From the NCBI GenBank assembly GCA_030704615.1, contig CM060734.1:38998001-39062000 (forward strand): 64,000 nt of DNA, in the 5' to 3' direction. The position numbers were made by a program, and so were the translations under genes. Below the pieces are notes generated by a model that was given only the letters and a program-made list of their open reading frames with translations, was not told where the DNA came from and did not search any database. This DNA comes from Takakia lepidozioides. Taxonomy: Eukaryota; Plantae; Bryophyta. The number at the start of each line of letters is the position of its first letter. Position 1 is the first letter of the stretch. Below, piece by piece: positions 1 through 37,455 of the stretch.

Positions 1-1054
1 CACTGCCAAGTTTGGGTCAACTCTGTCATCGACATTGGGAAGGTAACATGGCACACAATTACGCACATAGTCTTTCCAAGTCATGCCATCCCGACCCTCC
101 AAGATTAGGACTCCTGAGGGCAACACCTCTCGAACCCTCAGAATAACACGCTCTGCAATGACATCCAGGGTCGTAGGAGCAGTATGCTGCAAATAAACAT
201 AGTCACCCGGGCTAAACCGCCAAATCCCAGGACGATATCCTCCACCACGTATAGTGGCATACCTCAACATATCACGGTGTTGTGCAATGGCAAGGTTCTC
301 AAAAGCCATGGGCATGATTTTCTTGAACAACTCTGCACGCTGATCACATGCACGTACCCAAACGTCCGGATCGTCAAGGTTAAGGACTTGAGTAGTGTCT
401 CTACGAATGGCTGTAGGCAAATCCCGCTCTTGGCCAAAGAGAAGAAAATATGGTGAGAAGGAGGCAAGTGATGCTTGTTTGCTGAACCTGTAGCCCATGG
501 CTAACCAAGGCACCTGAAGATCCCAATCTCCTAAGTGTCCCTTCTGCAATCTATACTTGCGCAAACCCTTCTTCACCGTATGAACAACTTGCTTTGCCAA
601 GTCATCGGCCTCAGGATGATCCCGAGAAGTGGTGCAGTGGTCTATCAAGGTTTTATCACACAAAGCCTGAAACTCCCCCAAGAACTCTCTCCCTTGGTCC
701 GTGAGTACCTCAGCTGGAGCACCAAATCAGCTAAGCACACGATCCAAGAATGCATACGCAGCCCCCTCACTAGCCTTGTCAGGCAATGGAACCAACTCAA
801 TCCACTTGGAGAAGTGCTCCACCATCACCAACACATATCTATGGTGGCGCATAGTCAGTGGCAACGGTCCTGCGAAGTCAAGACTCCACCTGTAGCCCAA
901 TCGGGGCGTTGAATGAAGCACGCACCCTGTCATACACCATGCACCTAACCACGAACTGTTGCACCTCTGTATGCATACCACGCCACCAATACTGCCCCTG
1001 CAGTAAACTGTGAGTGCGTCGCACTCCAAAATGCCCCAACTCCTCATAGACATG
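1..1054 (-). pseudogene. Gypsy integrase (HHCC-like N-terminus + DDE core), frameshifted, with stops
   Basis: LGHFGVRRTHSLLQGQYWWRGM, RWSLDFAGPLP...VMVEHFSKWIELVPL, S*FGAPAEVLTDQGREF; frameshift near 905; C-terminus continues to the window edge (NCVPCYLPNVDDRVDPNLAV). Confidence 0.9.
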
Positions 1055-1855
1055 TCATACTAACTGTGCACGCTGTGTGGGGTGAGGCACAATCCTCACC
1101 CGACCATCCTCCCATACTCGGAGCAGGTGTATCCCCTCCCACTTGAACCTCTTGGCTCGTTGCAGGATCCGATCCCTCTCCTTGGCAGTCACAGTGGCTG
1201 TCGTGTCTCCAGTACGGAGGTAGTCCAACACAGCCAAATCCTCATGTATATCTCGGGTACCACCTGGCTCATCATTAGCCTCAGGGTCCTCAGACACTCC
1301 GTCTACAGTCATCCCTGTTGTAGGTCCAACCTTACCTCCCGATGCCAAGATACATAAAAAGGCAGATGCATGCCATCCCGGCACCATCTCCTCGTCCGTC
1401 TCACCATGCCACCGAGCTCCAGTGTCATCCTGCTGGCTCGTGCATGGATTGCGACTCAATCCATCCGCATCCCGATTGACCAAACCCGGTCGATGCACAA
1501 CCTGAAAGTCATACTCCTGGAGTATGAGTGCCCACCGTGCAAGCTTCCCCGTAAGCTTGTCTGACTCCATCAACCACTTGAGTGGCTGGTGATCCATGAT
1601 AAGGGTGAAGAGATTGCCATATAGATAGCACCTGAAGTGTGCCACGGCCCACACTGCAGCTAAGCACTCTCCCTCATATGAGCTGTACTTAGCATCTGCA
1701 GTGTTGTTCGAGCGGCTAGCATAAGCCATTACGAACTCTCTTCCCTCATCATCCACTTGTGTGAGCACCGCTCCAAGCCCCAACATTCTCCAATCCGTAT
1801 GCAGCTGAAAGGGACGCCCCCTGATAGGTCGTCTCAGGATAGGCGCCAAGGTCAA
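1055..1855 (-). pseudogene. Gypsy RNase H domain
   Basis: FQLHTDW..LGLGAVLTQ, YASRSNN..AKYSSYEGECLAAVWAV.HFR.YLYG, DHQPLKWL, ARWALILQEYDF.VVHRPG..N..ADGLSR. Confidence 0.93.
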
Positions 1856-1903
1856 CCTCGCCTTGAGCTCTTGAAAAGCTCGTTCCTACTCATCTTCCCA
1901 CTG

Positions 1904-2818
1904 TCACTCCTGGTCCACCTTGGTCAACTTGGTTAGAGCCTTTGCAATGGCACTAAATCCCTTGATAAACCGTCTATAATAGTTTGCCAACCCCATGAAA
2001 GCTCGAACTCGGTTCACATCCGTGGGGCGTGGGATTTGTGCAATGGCCTCTACTTTAGTCTGTTGTATCCCCAATCCTCCAGGATATATCATGTGACCCA
2101 GATACTCAATCTGGTTGTGGAAAAACTTGCACTTCCCCAGATGCAACTTCAATCCGTGCGCTCTCAAGCGCTCCAATATCACTTGAAGGTGTCTCTCATG
2201 CTCCTCCACTGTAGCACTAAAGATGATGATGTCATCTATGTAGCACCGAGAAAAGTCCTCCCCTGCTAGAATCCTATTCATGACTCTCTGAAACTCTACA
2301 GGAGCATTCTTAAGCCCAAATGGTAAGAACCGCCACTGATATAGGCAATCCTTGCCGTGCTCATTGATCCCCCAGAATGTCGTCTTCTGCTTGTCCGCCT
2401 CCTTGATCGGCAACTGGTGATATCCGGATTGTAAATCCAAAGTGCTAAAGACCTTAGCATGCCCAATGGCATCAAAGATCTCCTCTGGTGTTGGCATGGC
2501 ATACTTATCGGACTTGGTCTGACGATTTACAGGCCGGTAATCACCGCACATACGTCTCTCCGTCCAATTGCCATAGACATCCTTCTTGGCTGCAATCACT
2601 GTGGCTAAAGCATACTCTCCACCAGAGAGCTCCACCAAACCAGCCTCCCAGAGATCTTGAGTCCTCATCTGAATCAAAGACCTCTCTATGTCACTGTATC
2701 TATAGGATCTCCAAAAGATTGGCGTGTCAGTGGCCAACTCAATACGGATCTCTTGACCCTTCAGTGCTCCCAAGTCCTTCAAACTGAAGGCAAAGCAATT
2801 CATGTAAGCCCTTAGCAA
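1904..2818 (-). pseudogene. Gypsy reverse transcriptase
   Basis: RMCGDYRPVN, FSTLDLQSGYHQ, LPFGLKNAP, YIDDIIIFS, KC.F...IEYLGH, RAFMGLANYYRRFI. Confidence 0.96.
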
Positions 2819-3249
2819 CCGCCGTATACGTCGTCTCTCTCCTCCGGTGACAATGGGTCTAATGTCAGGCTTCCAATTGTCCTCCGTAACTGCAACCTTA
2901 AGTCCAGTGGGCTTAGAGGTAGAGAACGCGTCCAGTGGTTGCTATGTTGCAACCTCTTGAGCAGTACTCCCTACCTGCTCAGTCAATGACAAGGCCTCAT
3001 CCTGCCCCATCATCTCATCCTCGAGGACTTCCTCAACCCGAGAAAAATCCCCAACCTCATCCATCACTGCTACCTTGGCTGCCAACTCCCTCTGAACCTC
3101 GAGCACCTCCCACGTGTGCCATGGATGCCTGCACCCCGTGGTCCTCACATGCTCGCCCCCACCCACTGCTTGTACCGTCTCGGTAGGCAGAGAAACCATC
3201 GAGGGAAATGTACTCCGCACTCTGCGTTGCTCAGCCATAGCCAAGCTGA

Positions 3250-4195
3250 TAATCCAAGTCAAGCAATTGAGATCCATTGCTTGCCCCAACACCTGATGAC
3301 ATGATGCCTCAAAAAGAGACGGCACCGCCGTGGTACCAGTGGTAAAACCCATTGCCCGCTCACGCTCATCAGCATTGGGCTCCACTAACTGCTGCAACTG
3401 AGCATCCCACAGGAGGCCAGGTCCACTATCCCGGAAAGCATGCGATCCTGGGAAGCTGAGCAGTGTAGATAATGGTGCTCGTGGTTGACCCACCTTGTTC
3501 ACCACTGCCAAAGGCGAACGGTCATCGTGTCTCACACACTGAGACTGCCTCCCTGTGTCCAAAATGCTATCCACTGTGAGGTGTGTTGGTCGTTGCACCC
3601 CATCAAATGCACGCTTGAGCAGTGCGGGTGGCATCAAGTTAGTCCACCATAGCCGGGGACGATGAGCCTGTGACCCCACTGCAGCTGCATCTAGCAACAC
3701 TGTTGACCCAAGCCACGACCGGACTTGATGCACACTGGCCATCACCCTGGCCCAAGAATCGCCCATCAGTGGCACATTCTCCAAGATATATGCTGGAGAT
3801 ACAGCTTAATGAAGCTGCAAGTGGCGCAAAACCCGTACCATCTCCCAAAACAGACCCGACCTCAAGTCTCGCAATCCATTGCCTTGCCCGGCTGATGAAT
3901 GCCCTTGGCAGGGCCAATTTGCCACTACCAGATCAATGGAGCCAACCTGCTCCAAATCCTGTGCCCCCAGCAACGAAATGTCTGCTCGCAAGGCTTGTTG
4001 ATATCCACGAACTGCAGACACCGGCAACAACTCAGGGTACTGCTGCACCAACTGAGCAACATGGCAAAGTGAAACGCGTCGTGCAGTCTCATCCCTCTCC
4101 ACATACAGGTAACACCAAACTCGTACACCTGCCTATAACACAACAGCCAATCCGGTGCCGATCCCGCCAAACAAGTCCAGAAGACAAATGTCTTC
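3250..4195 (-). pseudogene. DNMT3-like C5-cytosine DNA methyltransferase domain embedded in the Gypsy polyprotein
   Basis: Motif I LLDLFGGIGTG; II/III YLYVERD..., ADI; IV IDLVVANWPCQGHSSAG (catalytic Cys codon 3908-3910) followed by GLRDLRSGLFWE; VI YILENV (3773-3781); VIII LDAAAVGSQAHRPRLWWTNL; IX ERERAMGF; X QVLGQAMD. Same frame as protease and RT; in-frame stops at 4133-4135 and 3806-3808. Confidence 0.93.
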
Positions 4196-4599
4196 ATCCG
4201 GATACTGCCACACAATCGGTGTGGTGTCCAATGGTGACAACTGAGGTGGTCCTGGTGCAATCCCCGCACGATCTTCATCTCCTGACAGTGCAAAAGCCTC
4301 TACCCAGGCTTGTTGCACCTGTCGATCAGCAACCCGCTGCAAATCCTTGCTCGAGCCCCACAATGGAGTCTGAGCAACCATGGCAGGCAACTCTGCCATA
4401 CCATACATGTCATCTTGATCTCCTAGAGGTGTGTCATCCTCTGAATGAGCGTTGCCCTCAAGCAACTCTCCAGGCCAACTCACTACAGTTGTGAATGTTG
4501 CTAGTATCGGCATCTTGCCCCGCTGGGCAACCGCAACTCCTCCTATGAACGTCACAAGGAGCTGCACACACCGGCCCTCCCCTGACTGCCATCCAGGCC

Positions 4600-5041
4600 T
4601 ATAGGAAGCTAACTCCTCCCAAAAATCCAGGGTGAAGCCCATGGGGTACAACACTGCCCCACCAATCATGACATCGTATGAGACCGCGTCTATCACAATG
4701 GCCTTGGCTCGCATCACTGAGCCATCTGTAGGGTGATCCTGCTGTAGTCTGATAGCCAACTCACGCCGTGTCATGCCCCGAACCTGCTCCAATCCTCCCA
4801 GAGACGTCTGTATCTGGAAAGGACAAGGCTCCATATCCGCCTCCGTGAGGCCCAAGCCTGCAATAGCAGCTTTGCCTAGCATCAATGGCTGAGCTCCCGA
4901 GTCCAACAAGACCCGCAGTGGCCGATACCTCTTGCCTGCCGGTCCACTCAAACAGAAAATGTCATCCTGGTTGTCTAACATAACAACTTCAAGTGTCACC
5001 ATGGCGCGCTCAATGGCTGGCCTAGCTGGCAGCTCCATCAA
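4600..5041 (-). pseudogene. Retroviral-type aspartic protease
   Basis: RVLLDSGAQPLMLG active site and YDVMIGG C-terminal motif in ORF 4133..5041. Confidence 0.88.
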
Positions 5042-5668
5042 CCTGGCAGCTGCAGCTTGTCATGGCGCCGCCGTGGCAGTCTTGACCCTCAAATCCGAGG
5101 ATCCCTCCGGCACTACACCTTTCACTATTTCCACAGAAGATGAAGTAACATCCCCACTCTCACAGAGTGCAGCTGCCAGCCTGAACACCTTAGCTGGTCT
5201 TACCCCCGGTGTCGCAATCATGGTAGCCGAGAACAATGGAGCCTGACACACAGATGTGGCCGCTCCCAACAGCACACTAGCTGCCGTAGCCTTGGCAACA
5301 CTAGGTAGTGGTGCTACCCGTGTAGCTCTCCCCAATGACATAGTAACCTCCGCCTCGGTAACAGTCGGGCAAGAACTAGGTGTCATGGATGGCGTCGACA
5401 CTGTCTCCGCCAATGTGAATGACCGAGGAAGCCTAGCCTGACGGCTTGCCTCCCTATGCTGTGGATCCAACTCCACCTCTGCACCTCGTGGCTCAGGAAC
5501 TCGTGCTGCTCCTCGAGTCACGGCTGCAGCAGACTCCACCTGCACTAGTGGTAGTGCTCCTCCGCACATGAATCCCATGCCTCCCATATCTCCTCCCTCA
5601 GGAACAGGAGGTGGACCATCCGGCCTTGGAGCCGGTACCACCTGAGTTGTAGCCATGGCAGTGAGCCT

Positions 5669-7100
5669 CTACTCTAGTTGTTGAAGCCGGTTGGCCATGC
5701 CTTGGTCAACACCCTGACCTCCGCGTCCTTGGCCATGTTGAGCTTGCCCTTGGCCTACACCTCGTGCCTGGCCACCTCGTCCTCTCTGGGCTGCCCCACC
5801 TCGCCCCCGGCCACCATTGTTCCCTTGGAACTGGCCTGGGTGCAACTCAGGATGCAAACCATAACATTGGGCCTCTCCATGCCCGTGCTTGCCACAATGC
5901 CTACACTGCAACTGTGCAGGCTATGCATGTGCCGACCCTTTGCCTCCCACTGGGCAATTCTTCTTGACATGGGGTCCTCCACATGTCCAACACACCACCT
6001 CCGTCCGTTGTTGGCCTGCAAATGAAGGGAGAGACCCCTGCATCTGAGGTCCTCTCTGTCCTTCCCTGAGCTTCACTTGAGCCCCCTTGTTCCCTTGAGC
6101 ACGTTGAGGTAGTGGTTGGCTAGAAGCACCACTACCCTGTGGTGTCTCCTTAGACAAAACTTCCATGACCACTCGTTCCTCCACCATGTTGAGCTCTATC
6201 CGCTCTGCCAGCAAAAACACATTTATTAAGGTGGGTTGGGCCACTTGTAGGAGAGTTGCATCCCGCACCCTTCTCCTCAGCTCCTTGTTCAATATCCCAT
6301 ATCTGCCTGAGCTTCCGTAACCCCTTGGGTTACATTTATCAAGTGCCTCATGCGAGTAAAAGCCTCCCTCAAGCTCTCAGTAGGCTTCCGTTGGAACTCT
6401 TGCAAGCTCCGCAACTTCTCTGTCCTCACCCCTTGGTAGTTCTATCACAACTCTTCGAAGAACTCCACAACAGGGTTGAAGGTAGGCACGGGTATTGGTA
6501 CTAGTGCGGTAGTGGCTTGGGTGGACGTCGTAGCTACGGTACCACCAGTCCCACTAGTCCCACTGCTACTTGTTGAAGCTGCCGGTGCAGCGGCAGGTGC
6601 AGCCACTGCCCTCGTGGCTCTAGTGCCCCTAGTGATGGAGACATAGTCAGGTGACCAGTACATCCTCCACTCCTCGATCTCAACCTCATGTAATCCACAA
6701 CTATTTACGCCTTTCATGGCATGGAAGGGGCTGTTTCAGTACCTTGAGGGGCCGCCTATGGATGATTACCATGATCCGCATTTGCTGCAAATCACACCAA
6801 CTATCAAACTCTTGGATAAAATCATCCAACTCGATGGTGCCCACCGCCCCAGAGTACCTTCATGGCCCCTTGGTAGCTCCATACATCTCTTCCATTGTGT
6901 CCCACAACAATGGCTAGGAAACAACTTGCATCGCCGGTGTGAGTCCTCCTGATTCACAATCCGAATCAGAACCTTCCGTAGAAGACACAGGAGATGAAGG
7001 TGGCCTAAACCACACACCTCGTCTCGTGTACCCACTAGTATCGCTAGTGCTCAAACCGGCACTGTCCCCAGCAACTAGTGGCACCTCCGTGTTGACAAAC
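5669..7100 (-). pseudogene. Gag with two zinc knuckles and an RGG-rich tail
   Basis: CWTCGGPHVKKNC and CRHCGKHGHGEAQC knuckles, GRGRGG repeats; upstream capsid-like segment IELDDFIQEFDSWCD...EIEEWRMYWSPDY with an internal micro-inversion and a frameshift near 6300. Start is approximate. Confidence 0.8.
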
Positions 7101-7819
7101 TGTCACTCAACCGGTTATGAACATGTCCCTAACCCCCTCTCCACAAGGTAACCGGGTAGAGAACCTGTTGCGGCTTATGGTTTGGAATACTAGGTTCCTA
7201 ACATAGCCTACACCTACACCTGCATCCACCGCAAGCACTCCTATGGTTGGTTGGTCATAACCTCCAACCTCACCACAGGAGAAACAATGATGGTTTGAAT
7301 GGTCATTACCCCAGCCTCACCATTGACAGCATGCTCTAGGACTAGCCGGTGATCAAATCCGGACCAATCACCTATAAAAACAAGTGCCCACACAAAACTA
7401 ACATGGCGCACAGTCAAGCATGCAGGTATGGAGGGGATCCAAACACAAGAAATCAGAACGACAACTCCCCCACACCAAAAACAACTCCATGGTGTTGTTT
7501 TTGCAAGGACACCCCAGCCCAAACCCGGACTGACTATTGCCTCCACCTACGGAAAGGTCTTGGCCTAATGAGAGGGTGGAAAACTACGAGGAAGAGAAAC
7601 TAAAGCAATGCCTAACCCCAACATGCCCTCATCCCAACACTCTTTTTCTCATTTCTTCCCTCACTTGCATGACAATGGGAATATCATGAAGATACTCCTC
7701 AAACCGCCCTCCACGAGCTTCAAAATTCAGCCTTCAAGACCACATGTTAGTCCTTAGGCAGTTTACCAGTGCCTCCACGAGTCAGCACAGGCCGTCCATA
7801 GGTCAACACGGGCCACCAT

Positions 7820-8080
7820 AGACCAGCACAAGCCCAAACAGATCACTGGTCACAGCCGTCACAGCCCCACACAGGCCACAGCCTGTCACAGCCCTACACA
7901 GGTCACAGGATCATAGTCCCACAGGCCATAGCCTGTCATAGCCCCTCACAGCCCATCACATCCCGTCACAGCCCCACAGGCCACAAGGCACAGCCTGTCA
8001 CAGCCCCTCACAGCCCTACACAGGTCACATGATCACGGCCCTACATGCCACACCCCGTCACAGCCCGTCACAGCCCCATC
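7820..8080. repeat. Imperfect minisatellite (GTCACAGCCC-type units) in the retrotransposon 5' leader
   Basis: Repeated cacagccc/gtcacagcccc/acaggccacagcc units. Confidence 0.8.
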
Positions 8081-9918
8081 CATGACCACTCATGGCAGTT
8101 TAGCCATTTCTCCAAGGGGTTTAGCCACGCCAAGCTAGGGTTTGTGTCTCTTGGACTCTAGGCTTCTTTGCACCGAGCTATGGCGGCTGTGAAGAAATCA
8201 GCAAGGTATTCTTGCTCTTTCGGCTCCCACACACTACCAATAGTAGCCCTAAGCCATGAGGAAGATGGTTGCCACAAACCAAGCCTTCTTTCTCACTTTG
8301 ACTCCCTAAACACACCACTAAACTCAATGGCAAACAACCAAGCCTTGTTGGTTTCTAGCCCTTGTGAGCACTCATTCAAGCGTTTTCCTTGGCCATAATA
8401 TCTGTCTTAGAGCCTATTCCAGCCCCCTATACCTGCCACTTCAAGAGCCATGCTCTATCTAGGCTTGAGGTTGAAACCCCACCTCACATATGCCCTACAA
8501 GTGCTTTTCTTTCACCCAAGTGGGAACCAGCCCTAGCCCTTCCATTCTAGCTCTCTAAAGCTTGAAAATAAAAGCCTCAATGGGCTGACATGCTCCACAC
8601 ATGCCTCATTCTCACCATAAGAGAATCAGCTCCTTTGCTTCATTTCTTGCACCCACAAACCTGAAAATACAAGCTTCAGCGGGCTGAAAGCATGCTCCAC
8701 ACATGCCCTACAGGGAAACCAGCCCCTTCCTTCCTTTCTTGCACTCCCAAACCTGAAAGTACAAGCCTTCAATAGTCTGAAAGCATGCTCCACACATGCA
8801 TTGCCCTCACATAAGGGAAGTTAGCCCTTCCCTCTTCCTTGCTTGCCCTCCAAGCTTGAAGATGGAAGCTTCAATGGACTGCATGCATGCTCCACACATG
8901 CATCCTCTTCACACAAGAGGTAATATCAGCCCCCTATCTTGGCTCCTTGGCTCCTTGATGCTCTCTAAGACAAGACTAAGCACTCCACAGCCTTTGCCAA
9001 GCTCCTGAAACCCTAAGGCTTACATTTCCAGCCATAAGACACTCCTCTTCTGGTGCAAGAGCTCTTTTTCCAAGCTCTGAAACCCTAGGTGCACATTCCA
9101 TGGCCTTGCCGTACCTCTTAGCTCCTGTTCCAACCATGCTCTTGCCATGACAAGAGCCCTCTCAATGCTGAAGCTCGAGATTGAAACCCAATCTCAACAT
9201 ACTCCACAAAGTGCACTGATTTGCCCCAAGCCAAATCAGCCCTTTCGCTTGGTCTTGCAATCCTTCACACAATGAAAGCTCGCATTCCCAAGTCCAGTTC
9301 CTGCTCTTGACTGGTCATCTTCCCAATCGTGCTTGCTCATGCATGTACACAATCTGAAACCATCAAGGTGCTCTGGAATTACCTGCAGCATGGTGCTTTC
9401 ATCTCTGAAGCTGAAGATCGAATGCCAAGGTCTACCACCTCGTAACCCACATCGCCTCCGCTTCTAACAACCAAGAGCTCCACGTTGCTCCTTGCATAAC
9501 AACCTGGTTTCTCTCATTCTCAAGCAAAAACCACAAGTGCTACAACCAACTTGTATCTGGCACTCACAGATACGAGCTCATCTTTCTCGAGTGATAAAGA
9601 AGAAGAATACAAGCACAAGCTCATGCGAGCTCACAAAGCTGAAGCTTAAACTCATGCATATATAAACTCATCACTCAAATACAAGTCAAGCCAAGTGCAC
9701 CCCACGCCATGGGGAATCCACACTACGGCGCCATAGCTAGGCGCGGTGAGACTCAACTCGAGAAAGATGAGCCTCCCGCGCTTGCCGTGAAGATAACCAC
9801 TCCGGGGCCTAAATCTGCCTTGACCCCTGGATTGACACTTGGGCCAATCCCAAATGTCAATATGTAAAAGCTAGCTATTTCCTAGCTAGTTTCACACTAA
9901 TGGTAAAATAACTTGACA

Positions 9919-10743
9919 TCTTGTATCGGATGTCAATCTCTTACTCCAGAAACTATGAAACACTGTTTGTTATACTGCTTTGTTCTAGCTCATGTTTGGC
10001 ATTTGGTGCTTTTTTTTCATGCCTTTGTGGAACCCGGTCTGCTCTGCTCTCCCCGTCACTCTGCTGTTAAATGCAAACTCACAGGGTCTATGGAGTCTCT
10101 GTCCAGTTTGGGCAGCGTTACGTGCCCACGCTCAATGGAATATTTGGAAAGCTAGATGTTGATCATCGATTTTTGAGGGAAAGAGGAGCTGTGTGAAAAT
10201 TATCTTGTTTAGAGTTCACTCAGACATTCTGTCTGAGCCCAAAAAGGCGTGGGTTGTCCTCTGTGCAGTTATTTCCAGATCATGCTCCAAAACGAGAATA
10301 CTACAGTTACTTTCTGGCTTTGACAACACCTAGCTGGCGAAGGGTGGCTGTCTGTGCCGTAGAACCTCCGATACCACTGTCAGGTGGAATGACCACCTCC
10401 CACCGGGCTGGCAGCTCAATTAGCACTTGCCTCTCCTCTGTCGAGGGGGATGAATCTGATACCAATTGGAGGCACCGCCGTAGCTTCAGGGAAGGGAAAT
10501 CGAAAGCCCAGCTTTCCTTTTAGCCTTCCAAGCGCAAAAGAAGGGATCCTTGACTCCTACTCTAGGCACTTTCCATGCTATATCTGGAAGTTTAATCACT
10601 ACCCTTTCATTTAGTCCTTTGGTCATGGGGCGGTGTCCCCTTCATCAGCCTCCATGGCATGTCATGTGAGGTTATTTTTTCCTCTATACAAATAAAGTCT
10701 TAAGGTCTCCCTCTCGTCTTTTCACTAAATTTTTGAAAAAAAA
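9919..10743 (+). mobile_element. 3' end of an L1-type LINE (zf-RVT region, 3' UTR, A-tail)
   Basis: CIGCQSLTPETMKHCLLYC zinc-finger motif; A-run at 10736-10743; the partner copy continues into further L1 sequence. Confidence 0.7.
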
Positions 10744-10759
10744 CATGCCAAAATGATCG

Positions 10760-11000
10760 CACCTGGCTTACATGTCCACCAAGGCACTGTTCAAAAAGAC
10801 GTCTGATACAATTCCAGCTTTGACGATGTCATCATGGACCGCTTTGCCTTTTTCCAAAATTGCCAAGCTCACACATGCATTGCAAACACAAACGAACGCC
10901 ATTCAAACCCTCCCTATCGTTTGCTCACATATGTCTCCAAGGACATTCCTACCACACTTGGGCTTGTTAAATCTTGGCATGATCATAATATTCTATGTGA
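10760..11000 (-). pseudogene. PLS-class pentatricopeptide-repeat gene fragment
   Basis: Translates to ...CNACVSLAILEKGKAVHDDIVKAGIVSDVFLNSALVDM*ARC (L/S motif, cf. ALVDMYAKC). Confidence 0.75.
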
Positions 11001-12628
11001 TGGACAACAAAGTTATGCCCAGTGGTAATGGGCACCTACCACCTCGGAAGTGGGTGTGGGTTCAATCCACTGATTGGTGTCAGAAAAGTGTCCATTGACA
11101 CCATTAATTACGCTTCCTTCGGGAGGTGTCATATATATATATGTGTGATCAAAGTACGTTCAAGGTCCAAATAAACCTTAAACCCTAAACTCTAAACTTG
11201 GTGTACATCAACAATGCTCTTGCACTTCACAACATCCCTCTCTTTCACTTCACGAGCCCCCTCCCACACTTAACAACGTCTTTCTCTCCTTCACCGTTCT
11301 TGCATCCCAATGTGTCTATCCTACAATCATAGCATGCCATGATACCACATCCGTCATTCTTAGCCTAAAAAGCTTACAATTTCTAAATTATAAAATATTT
11401 ACTATTTTTAATTAAAAATTATACTAAATGACTGTTAATAGCAAAGATGACTGAAACCTAATGCCACGTCATCTTTTCCTACAGTTCATAGACACGACCA
11501 TTACTAGTAGTTATATATTTTCAAAATGTTGGTACGATCAAATTACGTTGACCAACCCTCCATATTTTCGTAGACGTGTAGACACAACCACGACTACATT
11601 TCTGTGGAATAGCAAATTTTTTAGCTTTTATGAGTCGCAGTCATAAACGTAGACGCCATTGCCGCCACAACCTTTCAGTCGTGAAAGCCGGGCTATGTTG
11701 TAGTAACAGTACATAAATACATCACACATCACCTCCAAGGCCGCCGATCTCTTAGTCCACGCCAACTGCGCACCCAATGTCCCCCCACAACATCTTGTTG
11801 CATTTTCCACAAAGGTCTGAAGATGTGTACATCGGGGTATGTTCATTCCGGTTGACCCTTGATACAAATTACAGTACATCATTTGAATACCATACACACG
11901 CATAGTACAAGACATACTTGATATGATCATCCATGTCCACATCGCTAATATGCATCATTTTGGCTCACCCTCCACACATCAACCCCGTCAAAACCACATC
12001 CTATCCACAATGTTTACCAAGGCAACACAAAGCTGAAGTCTCGTTCGCGCACAGTCCATACCAAGACCCACATATAAATAGAATTGACCAAGTCTATATT
12101 TTATTCATCACAAGCTATTTAGCTACTTTTGGGACACTAAATCAGTTACGAATGTCAAATTTAAGTTTAGATGTGCCTAGTACATGCGTAACCAACACAA
12201 CAAATTTTTCTACCCAAAAGTATAACCCCTCAATTTTTGACTTTTATGCACCCACAACCCGTTTGCATACAACACATAATCACATTTGTACTTGGGACAA
12301 TGCACACACCCAGTCATATACGGTTTGCGCATCACGTGTCATAACCAAGTTGTCATATGTTGACACATCCACAAACTATTAATGCGGCAATACAATTTTA
12401 CATCCATTAATAGTACAATTTGTCTGTCATGCATATAAGGAGGTATAAATCTAGACGTGGTCACTCAACACCCACATCTATCAACACATTGTGCGAGTGC
12501 ATTTTACAAGTGTGCATGTGGCCTCTCAAGATTTAATACTTCAAGGGGGAGGAACATAAAATCTTGTCCAAATTAGAAAGAGTCAAGTGGTTTACTGCAG
12601 TACCCATAACCTGTTGCAACTATTAATC

Positions 12629-13816
12629 ATGGCACCAATGTTTCATCTTATGATGAATGCTTCTCTCTACTTGATCATGCTTCTGACGCCAGTTTTGTTG
12701 AAAGGGGCGTCTGCTTACTGTGTGTACAACCTTGCCTCCTACGACATCAGCGTCCTACAGGTGATGATTAAGTTACAAGTGATCATGAGTTTGAGACCTA
12801 CGTGAAAATGCAAAATATTGTAGAGTTTGTAATCTTTCTAAATAGTTGGCAATGGTTAATGTCAAGGCTGTACTCCACTCCACATACATAGGAGAAGGTC
12901 CATGGTCAATCACGTTTGGTCGTGTTGAATAGACTAGTTAAATTGAAAGAGGTCTCTACTTATTGTATGTTGGACAATGTATCATACACTAAAATCCACA
13001 CTCATCGTGAGCTGCAAGAATTTCGAACCATTTAGATTGGTAAAGAAGTGGACATCAAATTATTTTTTACCACTTTGCTTATAGGTTTGAGATCTACCAC
13101 ACAAAGTATTAGGAAAGACAGTTAGATGTCAAAGTTCGGAATTGTTTCTAATATATCTATATTCTACTTCGAGAAAAGGATATGTCATTACTATTGCATC
13201 TTCAGCTCCATAAATGATATCAATATTGCATGTTACCATATCTTCACATTCATATTTTAATTTGCTTTTGTGACTACAGCTCCCGGTGACGGACACATCC
13301 TTCAAAGCTATAGTATCTGCTGGCACCTATACATGTTGCAACTGGCAAACGTCTGATTGTACTATGGTGAATTCGGGCTCGAACAATTATCCGCATGAAG
13401 ATCGATGTGCAACAACACCATTTGCCATATTGAAGTATCAAATTGATTTGACGGAGGTGGAAGTAGCATCAACTCTAAAAGAAATTAGTTCCATCCTAAA
13501 CGACCTTGCTTCTATGTTCCACAATGGAGACATTATAACTTGGATATCGAATTTTGCAGGTGTAGTAATACCTGCAGAATACAATGCACTTTCACCATCT
13601 AAAGCTGCAAGTTTGATCCCAAATATCATCGGCTACAACTATGTCCCGGATTTTGTTGTGAATGTTATCAATGGGGGCACAATTGAACATAACTATGATG
13701 GTAACGAGATTCCGGTTTCATGCTGGGAAGGAACATGCCAAGGTCCAAACATCAATTGGGATGGAAGTATAGGTCCTCCCTCAGATATTTGCCCTAATGG
13801 CATTGACGGTAATTAA
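12629..13816 (+). CDS. Secreted cysteine-rich protein of unknown function, 222 aa; exons 12629-12760 and 13280-13816
   Basis: ATG 12629; hydrophobic signal ending ...LLKGASA; GT at 12761 and AG at 13278-13279 join in frame; 8 Cys in the mature part (YCVYN...TCCNW..SDC...); TATA-like gtataaat at 12443-12450. Confidence 0.75.
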
Positions 13817-16012
13817 TGCACAACTATAGTGTACAACACTAGATCGTATAGATGAAACCGTAGTGCGACGTCCAGGAAAATGAAAGTCAAATGCCAAAGT
13901 TTGTTCCAATTGTTTAGATGTTTTATGAAGAAATACCAGTTAAAGAATATGATACAAATTGTACAAGACAAGCTTCCTAAAGAGACATATTTTGGGAGGT
14001 TTTTAGAGAAGATTGAACGTAAGGAGATTGAATTATTTGCCTAATTCTGATAAAGAGGAAAGTTCTCATTGGAGAATTACTTGTAATTCTGTATTGAAAT
14101 AGTGTGAGTTGGAGGGCAATTTCTAACTTACAAATAACACCAATTCATGGAATCGGTGTGTCCAAAATAAACATCCAGTCCATCAAAGAAGTGCGGGGAA
14201 GTGTGGTAAGGGACAATGTTTAAATGATTGCTTAGATGTAGTTGCAATCATACAAGCTGGAAAAAAACCCTACTATCTGAAGTTGGAGAGAGACCAAGAT
14301 TTAAGAATTGCCCCTAAAGTCGAGCAATCCAGGTTTTTGCAACATCCCTACCCCTCATCCGTCATGAATAATTTGTGAAATGGACCATTCATCCTCACAT
14401 CTTCTTATATTGATTCGTTATTTCAAGAACGACCGGTTGTTTCCTCTCAACAGAAGTTACAACGTTGAATGAGCTTTCATCTCTTTTTCTTGAAAGAAAT
14501 GACGAATGGATGTTTGATGAGTGAGCTTGGGATCATCATGGTGAACATCGGATCTGGAAACCTCATCCAATTCTCGATATTTGATGAAAATTGTATGACA
14601 TGACATTCACAAATGTCTCATATACAAACTACAAATTAATATGTTCAAAATCAATTCAAACATTTCAGACACACGGAGATCCGTGACGGAGACACCAAAA
14701 GGAACAGTAGCTAAGAGACGAAAGCCCCTAGAGAACTCGGGAATCAAGCAGGACCGTTCGTGAGTCTAAAACTAAAACCCAAAACTTCCGATCATAATTA
14801 ATTTTGAGGTATGTAAAATAATGAATTTAAGCTACCTTATCAAAATTCCATCCATTTCTGTTTTAATGGTTTCTGAAACCATGATTGTTGTGCAACCTTG
14901 AAGGGAGGATCTATCAATACAATTTCAAATGGTGACAATCACCCCCTTTTTCTTCTTTTTTTTCCATAAGGTGGATCAACAGCTCACTATTCAGGCCCTT
15001 ATGAGAGGAGGGGGGAAACATTAACCCACTCGTGTACTTGCTATGAGGCACAGAGGACGGACTAGACAAAAGGTCACGACGATACCGACAAGGTATCATG
15101 AATCACCCGCATGTCATGCAGTGACGGTGCACTATCCAATTGAGTTACTTTGCTTATTATAAGCAAGATTATTTCTTCCTAGCACCTTTTAGTTTGATTA
15201 ATATGGCCGTTTCCCCTTATATACAACCAAGTAGTTTGAAAATAAAAATCAGCTAAAGGAGGGTGGACATGTAGAGGCTGCCCATGTATGTGGCGCCTCT
15301 GACCAATATGACGCCTTCTGCATCACCACTCTATACTGCAAATGGAAAGACCGCACATGGGAGCCCAACAACAACCTCTTTGGCCCCCACCAAGATCGTA
15401 TTCTGGAACACAAAATTCAACTAATAATCGAATATCACCGCCACACCAATCTAACACATATATATATGGACCACTAGAACTACGCTCAACCGCCCAACTC
15501 CCTCCTTGCATGCTGAGAGTTCACTTAGCACCAAACACTCCCCCATTGTCAGGTGGGTGAGGACTCTGAAGTATACTGGTGACATCGTCATAGTTTTAGG
15601 AAAAGCAAATCCAAGGCGCAATTGTCTTTCAACCAGCCTAAGCACAATATGGGTAGTTTTTTAAATTGGTACCTTGTGCTTCTTGGCTTCCTTTCTTCCT
15701 TTTCTCCGTGACCGAGATCAATGCAGTCAGACAGTCCACATTTTGTAGGGATGGGTAACTTTGTTGGAGCTCATGGCCAGACTTGCAATTTGATTCATGA
15801 GGGAATAGAGCAGGCTTTGTACAAGATGCAGATGCAGGTCTAGTATTTGGAGACACAAGATTGTGGATTGAAGAGAGCTTGATACAGAAACATGCAGGAA
15901 GAACCTGGAATATGCTACACCAGTGCTTCACCGGAGAACCATCCAGGGAATGACCACAACGAGTTAATATAAGGCATACGCTGGTGCCACTGAACTGAAA
16001 CTTTGACAGAGA

Positions 16013-19000
16013 TTGTACTCATAAGACATTGTTTGCCGTAGCATTGTGGCCATTGACCCCGCGCCCAGTTTGAACGGAACATAAAGGGGCAGAAACTACC
16101 TTTGTCAGGGGCTGACGCCGGTAGTATGATTTACCTTGGAGTAAACAGTTGATCCGAGATTTCCAGATATCCTCCAGAAATCCCTTCACACAAGCATCAA
16201 TCTGATGTGTTTGATTTGCTTATAGCTAGACCCCAAAAGGGCCTGGGCTTTTGGCTCAGCCTCAAGATTTTCAAAGTTGTTAAGCAGAGGTACAGGCACA
16301 ATTTCCTTGATGGAATGGAAGAGGGTGTCCCGTTGGTGAGAGTACCCAGGACAATGAATCAGGAAGTGAATATTGTCTTCAGGTTGCCCACACAACGGGC
16401 ACTTCAATCCCCCTTTCCTCTCTGCGACTGTTTGTTGTTCAAAGGTAGGCTACCCGCCCTGAGTTTGAATTTTCAGTCTAGTGCCGAGGGTGGGTAGACC
16501 CTTGAGGTCATCCATGATGGCCTCACCCATGTCACAGACTGGAAACAGGTTCAGGGAAGTTTTCTGCCTAACTTCATTTTCTTCAGACAATTTCCTGGCA
16601 ATAGACATGGCTTCGGAAACTTCAGCTTCTAAGCCAGATTTATCCAGCAGGGTCATGGCTAGTGGACTAAGATTCAGATCCTTGAAAATCTCTTCTACCC
16701 TTTTCCGCCAGGATTTAGCCTGTTTGACAGGGCAGTCCTGCTTCCAAGATATAGAGTCGATTAACTTAGGATATCTGGTATTAGCCATACGTTGCAGCTG
16801 ACCCCACCATCTGATTTTGAATTCATTGCGTCGGGAGCTTAAGGGAGGAATGCCAAACCCACCCCGAACAGCCACATTAGCTGTTTTGGAGCATGCTGAC
16901 ATGCACTCCTTGAGCACCCCGACTTGGATGGATTCAAGAGACTTAGCCTGGTTGGAGTTATCAACCCATACAGCAGATGCATACTCCAAGGCCGGCCTGA
17001 TAATGCGGCAAAGCATGGTTTTTTTACTTCAGAGTTGATCCCTCTGCAGTGGAAAAATTTAGTGAGACCCAGCGCTTTGTGTTTGCCAGATTGAACCACA
17101 CTTTGAATATGTGCTTCCCAATTACAGTTGGAGGAAAACTCAACGCCAAGTTAGGTGTAGGAGGGGAGAACAGGGATCTCTTGGCTTCCCCACTGAACAA
17201 TAGGTCAAAAAGTGACCCGATGCAGTGGACCCGTGAGAAAGCCCAAACTGGAGAACGATCCATGGTGGATGATATCATAGTGGACAAGAATCTGTTTCCC
17301 CAGTGTGCCAATGTGTTAATTGACAGAACTGATATTGGTACCTCTGACCACTTTCTGGTTTGGACTGAGATCAAAAGGTGTTTCCCCAACACCAAGAGAT
17401 CTGTGAAACGTTCGATCCAGAAGTGGCGCATTGAAAATTTCCGAAATGAAGAGTTCGAGGCTGAGTATGTCCAGGCCTCGCAAGAGGCTCTGCCCAACTT
17501 TGTCCATTCGCTCCGAGACCTTCAATCTCGTGCTGGCAATGCAAGAAATGAAGTCGAAAGAGCAGTGGACTCTTGGGAGAGTTTCGTCTCTTCTGTGGCT
17601 GAAAAGATCATTGGGAGGAAACTAATTGTCTGCGGTAGAGCTGTTAATTGATGGACCCATGAGATCAAACTCAAGATTGCCGAGAGACGAGCCCTCTATA
17701 AAGAATGCTGCAGAATGAAAGCCAATAATGACCTTTGGGTTAGGAACTACCAGCTCCGCAAAGATATCAATCAGCTTGTAAGGTCTGAGAAGAAACTATA
17801 TTGGGATAAGTTATACGGGGAAATAAACTCAAACCACCATGGTGGTAATGACAAGAAATTCTGGTTGGCCCTTCAACGTCTGTACAAGCCGAAAAATTGT
17901 CAGCAAGTACAAGCGCTGAGGACCCCTAAGGGTGCAGTGGTGACTTCAACGGCTGACATTGTCAACACCTTTGAAACCCACTACAGTACACTTGGCAGAA
18001 ATTCTAGTTCTAGCAGCGAGGGGTTTTCTGAAGAATGGAATGACACAGTACAAAGAACTGTGTCTATGATTCAAGACAGCCCTGATGAACTGGAGTATAT
18101 TTCAAAGGGTTATAACGCTCCCATTAGTTCCTCTGAGATTGCGGAAGCAATTGAGCATCTAAACGAATACAAAGTTGGTGGCCCTTATGGCATTGTCAAT
18201 GAGCTTATCAAGCATGGTGGTGACCCTATGATAGAGGCCCTTGTTCTTCTCTTTAACCTTATATGGGAGAATGAAATTACCCCCTTTCGCTGGCGGCAGG
18301 GGGTCATTGTCAATTTATATAAGAAAGGTGACAGAGAAGAGCCGGGTAACTATCGGGGCATCACGCTTCTTAATGCAGTTGGCAAGATATTCTGCAGAGT
18401 TATAAGTACTCGTCTTGAGGTTGATCTGGAGTCCAGAGGTTGTTTCCATGAAGGCCAAGCTGGCTTTCTGCGAAACAGGGGCTGCATGGATCATATCTTC
18501 ACACTCAGCCAGATTATCCAGGGAAGGAAAAAAGAAGGGAAACCTACTTTTGTCTTTTTCCTGGATGTCAAAAAGGCCTATGACACTGTGGGGAGAGACG
18601 GTCTATGGCTCCGACTCTGGTCTTCCAAGATCAAGGGAAAGATGTGGAGAGTGGTCCATAACTTGTATGCTCACACTAAAAGCTGTGTCACTGTAAATGG
18701 ACAGAAGTCTAATTTCTTTGACATAGACCAAGGTGTAGCTCAAGGATGTACCCTCTCCCCTCTGCTCTTCAATGTTTTCATCAATGAACTACTGGAGGAT
18801 GTGGAAAGTGAGGGATTTGGGTTAAGGGTGGGTGATGTCACCATACCAGCCCTTATGTTTGCGGATGACTTTGCAGGCATAGGGGAGACTCCTTCCAACC
18901 TCCAGGGGCTGATAGATTGCGCGAAGAGATACTTTGATCTTTGGGGGCTAGAGGCCAATGTCAGTAAATGCGCAGTGGTGGCATTCAACGACCGGGGGGA

Positions 19001-19713
19001 AGGAGGAGGCAATCTCAAGTGGGTCGAAAGCTGAAGCTCTTCCAGACAGTTAATTAACCGTCTTCCATTAGAGTTCAGCTCGTCCTCACCAAAAGGTGCG
19101 ATGATATCATCCTGGTGAAGACCTTTACCCACCCGGGCATTGAAGTCACCCAATAAGACGGCCTGACCCTTGGCAAGGAAATTAGCACAGCAGCCAGATA
19201 CTGTGCTCATACCGCAAATCCTTGTTGATAATTTCACAATTGTCACACAAGAAATCTCGGACAAAGAGGCCAACACCTTTTTTCCCACGCTTGGCAGAGG
19301 TCACCTTAAGCGCACACATCTTGCCAAACCAATGGTAGCCGTTGACATCTCCAACCAGTTTGTCCGAAGTTTCCCATGTCTCTTGCCCAGCACAAATATG
19401 AATACCATTTGACTGAAGAACTTGTCCCACTTCAAATTGTTTCCTTTGGTTAGTCAACCCCGAGAAGTTGAAAGTGCCCAGCCTTTTGCATATGGATTGT
19501 TTGCCGTCTAGGGAGCCTATGATTGCTCCTGGACGACCAACCGCTCTGCAAAGGGGGATCAGTTGCCCCATGTGTAGATTTTGGGTGTCTAGAGTAAACC
19601 TTAAGGATTGGCAAACCATGCAGAGTGCCAAATCCTTCAGGCGAAGATTTAATTCTTCGAGAGTAAACCTTAAGGATTGGCAAACCATTCAGAGTGCCAA
19701 ATCCTTCAGTGCC
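16013..19713 (-). mobile_element. RTE-X-like LINE, near-complete APE-RT-CCHC ORF with a ~1.83-kb internal inversion (17193-19022)
   Basis: APE: LGTFNFSGL, AGQETW, LLGDFNARVG, SDHFLV; RT: LDVKKAYD, GVAQGCTLSPLLF, LMFADD; C-terminal CPLC..ED..HFL..C. 15-bp TSD AAACTTTGACAGAGA at 15998-16012 and 19714-19728. Clade assignment is from domain architecture only. Confidence 0.9.
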
Positions 19714-19807: not shown

Positions 19808-21240
19808 TTGTACTCATAAGACGTTGTTTGCCGTAGCCTTGTGGCCATTGACCCCGTGCCCAGTTTGAGCGGGAACAAAAGGGACAGAACCTACCTCTGT
19901 CAGGGGCTGACGTTGGTAGTAAGACTTACCTTCATATATAGAATTAATCCGGGTTTTCCAGATATCCTCTAGAAATCCCTTCACACAAGCATCAATCTGC
20001 TGTGTGTGATTTGCCCAAAAACTAGGCCTCGGGAGGGGCTTTTGGCTCAGCCTCGAGACTTTCAAAGTTGGTAAACAGGGGTACAGGCACAATTCCCTTG
20101 ATAGATTTGACGAGAGCGTCTCTTTGGTGAGAGAACCCCGGACAGTGTATCAGAAAATCAATACTGTCTTCAGATTGCCCACACAACGGGCAATTGCACT
20201 CTCCCTGTCCTCTCTGCTTCTGTTTGCTGTTCAAAGGTAGGCTTCCTGCCCTGAGTTTAAATTTCAGTCTAGTGCCGAGAGTGGGTAGACCCTTGAGGTC
20301 ATCCAAGATGTCCTCCCCGATGTCACTGACTGGAAACAAGTTCAGGGAAGTTTTCTGCCTAACTTCATTTTCATCAGACAATCTCATGGCAACCGACATG
20401 GCTTTGGACACTACAGCCTCTAAGTCAGATTTATCCAGCACGGTCAAGACTTGCGGATCCAGGTCCAGGTCCTTCAGAATCTCTTCTACTCTCTTCTGCC
20501 AGGACTTAGCCTGTTTGACAGGGCGGTCCTGTTTCCAAGATATAGAGTCGATTAACTTAGGATATCTGGTGTTGGACATATGTTGCAGCTGACCCCACCA
20601 TCTGACCTTGAATTCATCTCGTCAGGAGCTTAAGGACGGAATGCCAAACTCACCCCGAACAGCCACATTGGCTGTTTTGGAGCATGCTGACATACACTCC
20701 TTAAGCACCCCCACTTGAATGGATTCTAGAGACTTAGCCTGGTTGGAGTTATCAACCCATATTGCAGATCTGCACTCCAAGGCAGGTCTAATAACGCGAC
20801 AAAGCATGGTTTTCTTAACCTCAGAGTTGACCCCTCTGCAGTGGAAAAATTTAGTGAGCCCCAGAGCTTTGCCCTTGCCAGTTTGAACAACTTTCCGGAT
20901 ATGTGCATCCCAATTACAATTGGAGGAAAACTCAACGCCCAGGTAAGTGTAGGAAGGGAGGACCGGGATCTCTTGGCTACCCCACTGCCACTTAAGATCA
21001 CTTCCTCCCTCTCCTCTGTCGTTGAATGCTACCACTGCACATTTGCTGACATTAGCCTCTAGCCCCCAAAGATCAAAGTATCTCTTCGCGCAATCAATCA
21101 ACTCCTGGAGATTGGTTGGAGTCTCCCCTATGCCTGCGAAGTCATCCGTAAACATAAGGGCTGGTATGGTGGTATCACCCACCCTTAACCCAAATCCCTC
21201 ACTTTCCATATCCTCGAGGAGTTGATTGATGAAAACATTG
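19808..21240 (-). mobile_element. 5'-truncated copy of the RTE-X-like LINE (RT C-terminal part to 3' end)
   Basis: ORFs 20622..21329 and 20022..20579 (MFTDD, CPLCGQSED); flanking duplicate GAAGACAGAGAGA at 19795-19807 and 21240-21252. Confidence 0.9.
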
Positions 21241-21261
21241 AAGACAGAGAGAGAGAGAGAG

Positions 21262-21330
21262 ATTGTACAAGACGTTGTTTGCCGTAGCCTTGTGGCCATT
21301 GACCCCGCGCCCAGTTTGAGCGGGAACAAA

Positions 21331-21333
<3 letters not shown>
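21262..21333 (-). mobile_element. ~70-nt 3'-terminal stub of the same LINE between two (GA)n tracts
   Basis: Matches the LINE 3' end (...GTCAATGGCCACAAGGCTACGGCAAACAACGTCTTGTACAA); (GA)n at 21246-21262 and 21333-21366. Confidence 0.85.
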
Positions 21334-21369
<36 letters not shown>

Positions 21370-21939
21370 CCACATCAATAAAACCTGTCTGCTTGCAACA
21401 ATTAAACCCATTCTGGGTACCTCCAAGCATCATATCCATCCCCTTGCTGCTGCTTCATTCCCTTACATCATATCTCTTGCACCTGTAGGCAAAAAACGTC
21501 CTTGGACGCAATTGTATACTAAGTTTTAACATCTAATTAAAAGGTCTCAATTACATCTGGGTTCTCGTGTCGTATCCCCTGAAGGCAAACACATGGGCCT
21601 CCAAGAAGCTCCTACAAGCCATGGATCCTAAAGGGAGTGATGAGAGGATGCATCAAGCACCAGTGCCTCGCACAGAGAAATAAAAAATGGGCTCTGCAAC
21701 TAAAAGGAAGCTACCAGGGCTCTGCAAGCATCTGTGCAGTATCATTTGAAAGCTGTACAAAGTTGAAGGATGGTTAAGGGCAAAGCCTTGCTACCAGGAC
21801 TGGTAAAGTGAACATTAGTGACCATTTTCTGTAAGGTAGGCAAGTCACCTGATTATCTTGTTGATAGTGCACTGGAGTTTCCCAGCAATCTCAGGGATGG
21901 TCAACACATGGTTGCAAACCCGCATTTGAGTGGGGAGAC

Positions 21940-36500: not shown

Positions 36501-37455
36501 TATGCCCAATAGAGACAGACAGACAGCAACAGAGACTAGAGTAGCACGATTACTCATTTCAAGTTTAAATTGGAAAAAATACCTCAGCTTGCCGACAACC
36601 TGCCAATGTTGCTGCCTGGACCAGTGCTCTTGCAATAGGGTGGGATGTTGTCCGCTCAACACCAGCAGCCAAAGACAGCAAATCCCTCTCTGTCCATTTT
36701 GGAGCTCTGGGACATGAGAACCAATATCCCACCTAAGAAAACGGAAAGTGACATAGGGGCACACGAAGAACATCATGCCCTTATTGCAACAACATTCCAG
36801 GACAGCACATGCAAATGGTGGCTACAAATTATTCAGCAAGACTCTCTTGTAGTTCTAGGTTGTCAAATGGATTTCTCTAAAGATCTCTTCCTTTTTCTCT
36901 CTTTCTCAGGGCCCCGTGTGGGCATTGTCAAGTTTCTTCATTCTTTCACTTGCCTTCCAGAATATACAGCAACTGGAAGTGCACAGCCCCACATGCCCCA
37001 TCTCACCAGTACAGTGTAGGTATCAGAATCAGTGTTCTACTATGTTATGTTGTTTACTCCGTGATCCAATTGTCCATGGCTAAGCAATTTCCGAACCCAG
37101 ATGATTTGAAGTCCACTGTCAACTCAGTGTTAGTATCCCACAGGGACTATACACTATTGGCCAAAGTCCTCATGGAAAGCCCTCTCTTGGGTCCACTGGT
37201 TTTTAAGGGTCTTCTATGCAGCGGTTGCTAGATGTGCTACTTTGTCCCATGGGTCCTTGGGGGCTCCCTGTGGACTTTATACAGATTCTTTCTTCCTCAT
37301 GCAACGGTTTGGTTTGTTATTTGGTTTCTGGTGTTCTAGTGTGTCCCATCACCCCTTTGACCTCCCTTGGACATAACAATGTTCTTCTTTCTTCTTCTCT
37401 TTCTATATGTTTGGAAGCTGAAAGTGGGGGGTTGGGGGGCGCAGCAAAGTCCACC

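Follow-up and report, generated by a model that had tools for sequence, protein, structure and literature searches.

A Gypsy retrotransposon family with liverwort and moss relatives encodes a DNMT3-like methyltransferase ahead of a conserved stop codon

The window, the whole 64,000-nucleotide stretch of DNA analysed here, contains a decayed copy of a very abundant Gypsy retrotransposon family in which a DNMT3-like C5 cytosine methyltransferase (DNMT) domain lies between protease (PR) and reverse transcriptase (RT), followed by a conserved in-frame stop. The best explanation, which is considered reasonably probable as a whole, is that the first open reading frame (ORF1) encodes Gag, protease and the DNMT3-like enzyme and terminates at the conserved amber stop, while occasional readthrough would supply the Pol proteins RT, RNase H (RH) and integrase (IN). 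With DNMT in ORF1 and Pol obtained by readthrough, the enzyme would be as abundant as Gag and packed at capsid level, where it would likely methylate the cDNA of the element.

Organization of the element in the window

The element is read on the minus strand, and a single minus-strand frame (6292 to 1055) spans the gag zinc knuckles, protease, DNMT, RT and RNase H. The first-pass annotation had described this frame as running from gag to RNase H, which holds for the frame itself; but it contains 9 stops, and gag starts upstream, at 6895. The following features were assigned, with the supporting evidence in parentheses.

9592..9918 (-): 5' terminal repeat A, starting with TG and ending with CA, left end of the element (empty site, depth, motif)
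9756..9772 (-): arm inside repeat A, predicted RNA 5' end and self-primer (complementarity to 9576-9592)
9576..9592 (-): primer-binding-site position right after repeat A, not tRNA-like (complementary to the arm in A)
6896..9575 (-): long 5' non-coding region with tandem repeats at 7781-8029 and 8730-8917 (covered by family contigs)
5864..6895 (-): gag, decayed, with ATG at 6895 and Cys/His knuckles at 5992-5954 and 5905-5864 (tblastn with Marchantia protein P0006)
4583..5002 (-): aspartic protease, LLDSGA at 4909-4892 (motif)
3215..4192 (-): DNMT3-like C5 cytosine methyltransferase domain (Pfam, PDB sequence match, motif alignment, structure model)
2936..2944 (-): conserved amber stop with CAA-CCA (CARYYA), end of ORF1 and predicted readthrough site (comparison with relatives)
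2821..2935 (-): possible long-range stem 3' of the stop, arms at ~2935-2914 and 2846-2821 (suggestive)
2078..2797 (-): reverse transcriptase, YIDD at 2242-2231 (PF00078, E 1e-30)
1511..1900 (-): RNase H (PF17917, E 1e-31)
1..1056 (-): integrase in frameshifted pieces (weak PF00665 match below the cut-off; 60% identity to Marchantia protein P0050)

The domain order PR-RT-RH-IN with a DDE integrase, established from Pfam, tblastn and relatives, is that of Ty3/Gypsy elements. No Pfam protease match was obtained for the window protein, and weak ones were found in the fused relatives P0074/P0075. The window ends just short of the PHD finger and the 3' repeats found in relatives, leaving repeat A as the only visible repeat. 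The left end of the element lies at 9918, as revealed by a paralogous empty site (31950/31951) whose flank matches as far as 9919 and diverges beyond it. The bin of repeat A has a depth of 894k against 477k in the adjoining bin (~2x), and the repeat has a short motif in common with repeat A of a relative (L036). A standard 2.8 kb LTR (9918-7101) was considered and dropped, repeat A ending at 9592.

When 99,880 contigs of one public DNA run were aligned to positions 1-10200, depth (which is not copy number) was roughly even over all coding domains, including DNMT. Differences between the window and the family contigs are mostly A/T in the window and G/C elsewhere, and the CpG observed/expected ratio of the window copy is 0.46-0.54; host methylation explains this depletion equally well, so it cannot separate self-methylation from host methylation. 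Gag is broken by an inversion at ~6692-6775 (opposite-strand joints 6692/6777) and by a small deletion near 6300. Most family contigs lack this inversion (6692-6775, ~84 bp).

Identity and possible role of the methyltransferase domain

The domain matches PF00145 (DNA_methylase) at E 4.9e-10 and 39.8 bits against a cut-off of 22, the Pfam input being the minus-strand frame translation with stops written as X. Motifs I, IV, VI, VIII, IX and X stand in canonical order on the minus strand: LDLFGG (4180-4163), WPCQ (3916-3905), ENV (3781-3773), AHRPRLW (3667-3647), ERERAMGF (3367-3344) and LGQAMD (3289-3272). The top PDB sequence match is human DNMT3A (E 2e-7), followed by DNMT3B, with DRM2 and HhaI far weaker. 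Structural modeling agrees: the AlphaFold model of the domain (pLDDT 86) has DNMT3A as its best fold match (E 4e-17, TM 0.71/0.83). By sequence and by fold, the closest solved relatives are DNMT3 enzymes, as opposed to DRM, DNMT1 or bacterial enzymes. The reading made from the letters alone, an unpermuted DNMT3-like C5 methyltransferase carrying all six motifs, is thereby borne out, as is its expectation of a PF00145 match in the read-through translation.

The window domain shares the unpermuted DNMT3-type catalytic fold with both human DNMT3A (~20% identity) and the DNMT3s of plant hosts, but differs from them in having no DUF3444, PWWP or ADD and in being set in a retrotransposon ORF. Plant host DNMT3s carry DUF3444 according to the relevant passage of Yaari et al. 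2019 (PMC6453930), and Pfam finds none in the window domain. Two in-frame stops interrupt DNMT (4135-4133 and 3808-3806). Position 3808 has another letter in 99.9% of the aligned contig depth, so that this stop is decay private to the window copy; the stop at 4135-4133 is too close to the edge of the aligned stretch for a depth count.

In the proposed mechanism, the protease would free DNMT, and the packaged enzyme would methylate new cDNA within the particle, a step to which we assign an even chance. If true, new copies would arrive pre-marked in land-plant genomes. A rather unlikely alternative is that the DNMT fold is kept not for cDNA camouflage but for nucleic-acid or chromatin binding, RNA methylation, or self-silencing that limits load. 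It draws on the Klebsormidium nitens enzyme, which produced no methylation in yeast, a result that its authors call inconclusive, and on the options of RNA methylation and host benefit that they list (de Mendoza et al. 2018, PMC5890265, in the passages available). The decay of the window copy, typical of silenced, deaminated DNA (A/T versus G/C), fits it as well. However, the catalytic PC, ENV and RxR motifs are unchanged in 16/16 aligned DNMT rows and are thus invariant over very distant elements, and the DNMT3 domains of SymbioDIRS-Dnmt3 from Symbiodinium methylate CG de novo in yeast (same passages, PMC5890265).

A conserved stop codon between DNMT and RT

The first-pass annotation had placed DNMT inside one Gag-Pol polyprotein. 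This did not hold, as the conserved stop at 2944-2942 ends ORF1 after DNMT. From 65 sequences with a DNMT match to the domain end, 13 were removed by hand (other layout or non-retroelement) and 7 lacked the downstream anchor. In all 45 remaining scorable sequences (44 loci and the window), an in-frame stop lies 16-24 codons before that anchor (33 TAG, 12 TAA); these sequences are not independent, 35 of them sharing one hexamer (a Sphagnum-like subfamily, partly from redundant assemblies), and represent about six lineages. The motif CAR-YY-N stands right after the stop in 43/45 and the full CARYYA in 7/45, whereas CARYYN follows only 1/99 decay stops within DNMT domains and appears in 16/1615 background codon pairs. 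The second codon after the stop varies between CCA, CCC, CTA, TTA and TCA (Pro, Leu, Ser) with YY kept; because its amino acid varies, the constraint acts on nucleotides, synonymous sites being near saturation between these lineages. In the subfamily with the most rows (35), an ATG comes directly after CAA-CCC, and one lineage (L035) has two stops in tandem.

The host family shows 40 differences from the window at a level of at least 60% in all, none of them at 2942-2944 although these positions are covered. Decay does not account for the stop at 2944-2942, which the family conserves. Numerous database ORFs end at the position that matches it, and the reading frame is maintained across it. Pairing of the arms hints at a long-range stem 3' of the stop, with cognate arms averaging -20.1 kcal/mol versus -13.6 for swapped ones (3/720 permutations; upstream control 263/720), in windows picked after the folds were seen and in lineages that are related. 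The window's own stem ranks 43 of 189 controls in the duplex test, and whole-segment folding z-scores 3' of the stop are mostly weak (-0.6 to -2.6), with one at -4.9.

Tobamoviruses, MLV and SIRE1 are examples of stop-codon readthrough. Sequence comparison makes occasional readthrough the likely source of Pol (RT, RNase H, integrase) in this family as well. The CARYYA context is cited as important for readthrough in the accessible part of PMC3441728, which names Tca2 and VdLTRE5. Readthrough elements of this kind resemble the window family in having an in-frame stop between structural and enzymatic ORFs, a CAR-YYA context and a possible 3' stem. They differ in that the stop of the window family follows the protease and an accessory enzyme, both of which would be produced at Gag level.

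That the stop is real and Pol is instead obtained by splicing, reinitiation or a separate transcript appears quite unlikely. In the Sphagnum-like subfamily, an ATG that follows the stop by two codons could allow reinitiation, but the window and L006, L052, L028, L029, L060 and L035 have no ATG there. Similarly, the rarity of the full CARYYA is set against a hexamer conserved at the nucleotide level, a frame kept across the stop, and stem arms that pair better with their cognates than when swapped.

Still less tenable is a single uninterrupted Gag-Pol polyprotein that includes DNMT and in which every stop is decay, a reading judged very improbable. It can point to the one frame from 6292 to 1055, to fused relatives in Closterium and others, and to KnitGypsy-Dnmt3 of K. 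nitens, described with DNMT in the Pol ORF (PMC5890265, in part). For the stop clade it is already contradicted by the stop in 45/45 scorable sequences from about six lineages, by the fixed context, and by the presence of the stop in the host family.

Relatives in liverworts, mosses and green algae

Protein searches yielded 54, 4433 and 54 matches, of which the best 120 of the 4433 are listed; many of the rest are likely bacterial. Among the matches listed, the named close relatives, with identities of up to 71%, belong to Calypogeia fissa, Marchantia polymorpha, M. paleacea, Riccia sorocarpa and three Sphagnum species, and the nearest named liverwort and moss proteins show 65-72% identity. 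More distant named relatives come from Closterium, Haematococcus and Monoraphidium, and no vascular plant or Klebsormidium name is among the matches listed. The named liverwort and Sphagnum proteins support the earlier suggestion that the system reaches land plants. The host of the window is itself probably a bryophyte or some other land plant. A metagenome scan confirmed 80/87 loci, and the 16 loci on viral contigs are weak phage-type methyltransferases only, without retroelement domains. One family member, P0077 (HEY9806811.1), is annotated as a DNA cytosine methyltransferase of a bacterial MAG and is probably mis-binned eukaryotic DNA; one relative filed as a cyanobacterial MAG protein is probably mis-binned too.

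Three layouts occur among the relatives: PR-DNMT-stop-RT, PR-DNMT-RT fused, and RT-RH-DNMT-IN-PHD. The full order Gag-PR-DNMT-RT-RH-IN-PHD is seen in L008, L028 and L036. In 39-row quick trees, the stop type forms one clade (SH-aLRT 99 for RT, 98 for DNMT), the fused and RT-RH-DNMT-IN layouts fall outside it, and the three layouts need two changes. Patristic distances of RT and DNMT are correlated (Mantel r 0.56, 0/999 permutations as high), with 16/36 splits common to both trees; pairs involving the frameshifted RT of L004 were left out of account. The fused group is nearest to the stop clade in both trees. Its members have a single ORF (PR-DNMT-RT-RH-IN) without the stop and comprise P0074, P0075, P0195-P0203, P0206 and P0222, including the Closterium proteins. 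Since such fused relatives exist, the stop is not required for DNMT retention.

A 72-row DNMT tree places the window in a 26-row clade (support 95) of stop-type loci and proteins. Proteins in this clade mostly end 56-180 residues past DNMT, the exceptions being one spliced gene model and two truncated entries. The 72-row tree consists of retroelement rows and four presumed bacterial rows, and the trees were built without host DNMT3, DRM or K. nitens rows; the outgroup of the DNMT tree is not clean, as the long row P0188 fell inside. A large sister group (L055-L069, P0047, P0054, P0223, P0233) carries DNMT between RNase H and integrase, and a profile search returned 540 representatives at E<=1e-30, with retroelement status checked for part of them. 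The named members with the RT-RH-DNMT-IN-PHD layout, Haematococcus and Monoraphidium, indicate that DNMT-bearing Gypsy elements also occur in chlorophytes.

The DNMT domain is under purifying selection (omega about 0.09-0.15). Omega is 0.086 for the window versus L004 and L009, with synonymous sites near saturation, 0.155 for L004 versus L006, and 0.13 for the unsaturated pair L028 and L029. Values of 0.45-0.53 are obtained between decayed copies of one subfamily. As the first-pass annotation had held, DNMT is built into the element and not nested; nor is it a one-off capture with neutral dN/dS: depth is even across its neighbours, and relatives keep the domain, in the same position, at low omega. 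That a host DNMT3 was captured once or nested as a retrocopy, or that the sequence is a contaminant from outside plants, is hardly credible; although no clear host gene lies within the window, depth is even over DNMT and its neighbours in the 99,880 contigs, DNMT has the same position in many relatives and no DUF3444, and the nearest named proteins are from liverworts and mosses. None of the outcomes that the annotation had named as fatal to it (no PF00145 match, a neutral one-off capture, a contaminant) was encountered.

Terminal repeats, self-priming and a proposed circular intermediate

Instead of two full identical LTRs at its ends, the family has a split arrangement, A-coding-B-A-B (DIRS-like repeats), seen in relatives L036 and L050. 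In L036, repeat A (1679-2017) precedes the coding region, which is followed by B (10238-10350), A (10353-10691) and B (10693-10805). L050 has the same 3' end, and L008 shows B-A up to the contig end. Insertions have TG...CA ends, and a 4-bp target duplication is present in 2/2 relatives with both ends (L036, L030). The 5' A is preceded by B in 0/14 rows (12 distinct insertions), and B comes after a G-rich purine tract. With the purine tract ahead of B and the primer site behind A, the true LTR is likely B-A.

In 4/4 regions (the window, L036, L008 and L028), the sequence directly following the 5' A is the complement of part of A, a count made without a shuffle control. In the window, 9756-9772 and 9576-9592 are complementary at 17/17 nucleotides. 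The self-complementary arms represent three different sequences, 158-164 nt apart. This arrangement is that of Tf1-type elements, and Tf1-like self-priming is probable. Tf1/Sushi and Tcn1, as covered in the main text of the survey of Neumann et al. 2019 (PMC6317226), likewise have no tRNA primer site and have a post-repeat site complementary to a stretch within the repeat; the words 'methyltransferase', 'PHD' and 'Marchantia' do not occur in that main text. Unlike these chromoviruses, the window family has no chromodomain seen, a PHD finger in relatives, split repeats and DNMT.

The usual integration substrate of a DDE integrase is linear cDNA. In this family, B meets A in a constant palindrome, GACA-NN-TGTC (L036, L008, L050, L028), whereas the A/B junction is variable. 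Exactly A-coding-B-A-B would result if a two-LTR circle were opened at one of these B/A palindromes. Integration by the DDE integrase through a circle opened at this internal palindrome is, on the evidence of the junctions, evenly poised between true and false. Under this model, two-LTR circles would yield fertile A-coding-B-A-B copies and one-LTR circles dead A-coding-B copies. The A-coding-B form makes up 3/6 informative 3' ends, and either one-LTR circles or recombination of the two B copies could produce it. Copies ending directly after the first B are found at L013:6945-7057, L016:11759-11871 and in L005/L007. At L030:13342-13359, the A/B junction includes additional bases that derive from the side of the primer site, resembling a circle junction formed imprecisely. 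The complete combination, an ancient green-lineage Gypsy clade, abundant to this day in liverworts and mosses, with Gag-level DNMT3, self-priming and a palindrome-opened circle that is methylated before insertion, can be put forward only tentatively and is more doubtful than its parts.

Comparison with known DNMT-bearing retrotransposons

KnitGypsy-Dnmt3 of K. nitens has DNMT in the Pol ORF and DIRS-like repeats (de Mendoza et al. 2018, PMC5890265). As far as the passages available describe it, it resembles the window family in its Gypsy domain set, its unpermuted, intronless DNMT3-like domain under purifying selection, and the A-coding-B-A-B layout, here seen in relatives. It differs in that DNMT is located with RT and RNase H in the Pol ORF; in the window family, DNMT is the last part of ORF1 and is followed by a conserved stop, relatives occur in liverworts and mosses, and copy number is very high. 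In those passages, no mention was found of readthrough, self-priming, target duplication or a PHD finger for KnitGypsy-Dnmt3. The window element likely works like KnitGypsy-Dnmt3 and probably belongs to that clade, the one described feature that it does not share being an ORF common to DNMT and RT.

DIRS/PAT elements possess a tyrosine recombinase, have no aspartic protease and make no target duplication. The DDE integrase, protease motif and target duplications of the window family thus set it apart from that class. SymbioDIRS-Dnmt3 is similar in having a DNMT3 domain in a retrotransposon ORF and split direct repeats, but belongs to the DIRS class with a tyrosine recombinase, in contrast to the DDE integrase, TG...CA ends and 4-bp target duplications found here (passages of PMC5890265).

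Previously known DNMT-bearing retrotransposons were from dinoflagellates and one charophyte. A 2019 review states, in the passage available, that land plants such as tracheophytes lack them (PMC6338049). The corresponding passages of Sarre 2025 (PMC12344493), citing the 2018 paper, and of a 2026 preprint (10.64898/2026.05.21.726589) use the wording 'streptophytes', the preprint making no mention of Marchantia, bryophytes or land plants. A literature search, with subscription journals outside it, found no report of bryophyte members, the readthrough stop or the circle model; the passages covered include those of PMC11982613, PMC6453930, PMC8616336, 10.1101/363937 and 10.1101/2022.06.16.496473. 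This kind of element is already published; the window family is a variant of it marked by a conserved stop, split ends and probable self-priming, in a lineage extending to tractable land plants.

In Marchantia, Riccia, Calypogeia and Sphagnum, close relatives carry anonymous protein annotations, and owing to the split ends, standard LTR finders would likely miss or misclassify these abundant elements. The question raised in 2018, what role a transposon's own methyltransferase plays, can now be posed in Marchantia, a model for genetics in which methylation mutants exist. The conserved stop makes a prediction about enzyme stoichiometry, and the anatomy of the ends one about integration: a circular intermediate used by a DDE integrase, which would break the rule of linear cDNA.

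Other features of the window

Pfam scans of 18 + 50 other window frames revealed only LINE RT, DDE transposase and SWIM pieces, with no host gene among them by which the lineage could be fixed. LINE-like non-LTR RT copies, nested or fragmented and 85-98% alike, occupy 17004-19034 (+), 20022-21374 (-) and 34761-36821. An open DDE_Tnp_4/Plant_tran transposase ORF of 433 aa lies at 41143-42444 (-), and a SWIM-finger ORF, likely a MULE, at 50694-51818 (+). A short decayed stretch at 10747-10902 (-) has no Pfam match and resembles a PLS-class PPR repeat of land plants. Finally, an inverted duplication of ~4.2 kb (94-96% identity) relates 9919-14125 to 31950-27705, the second copy providing the element's empty insertion site.
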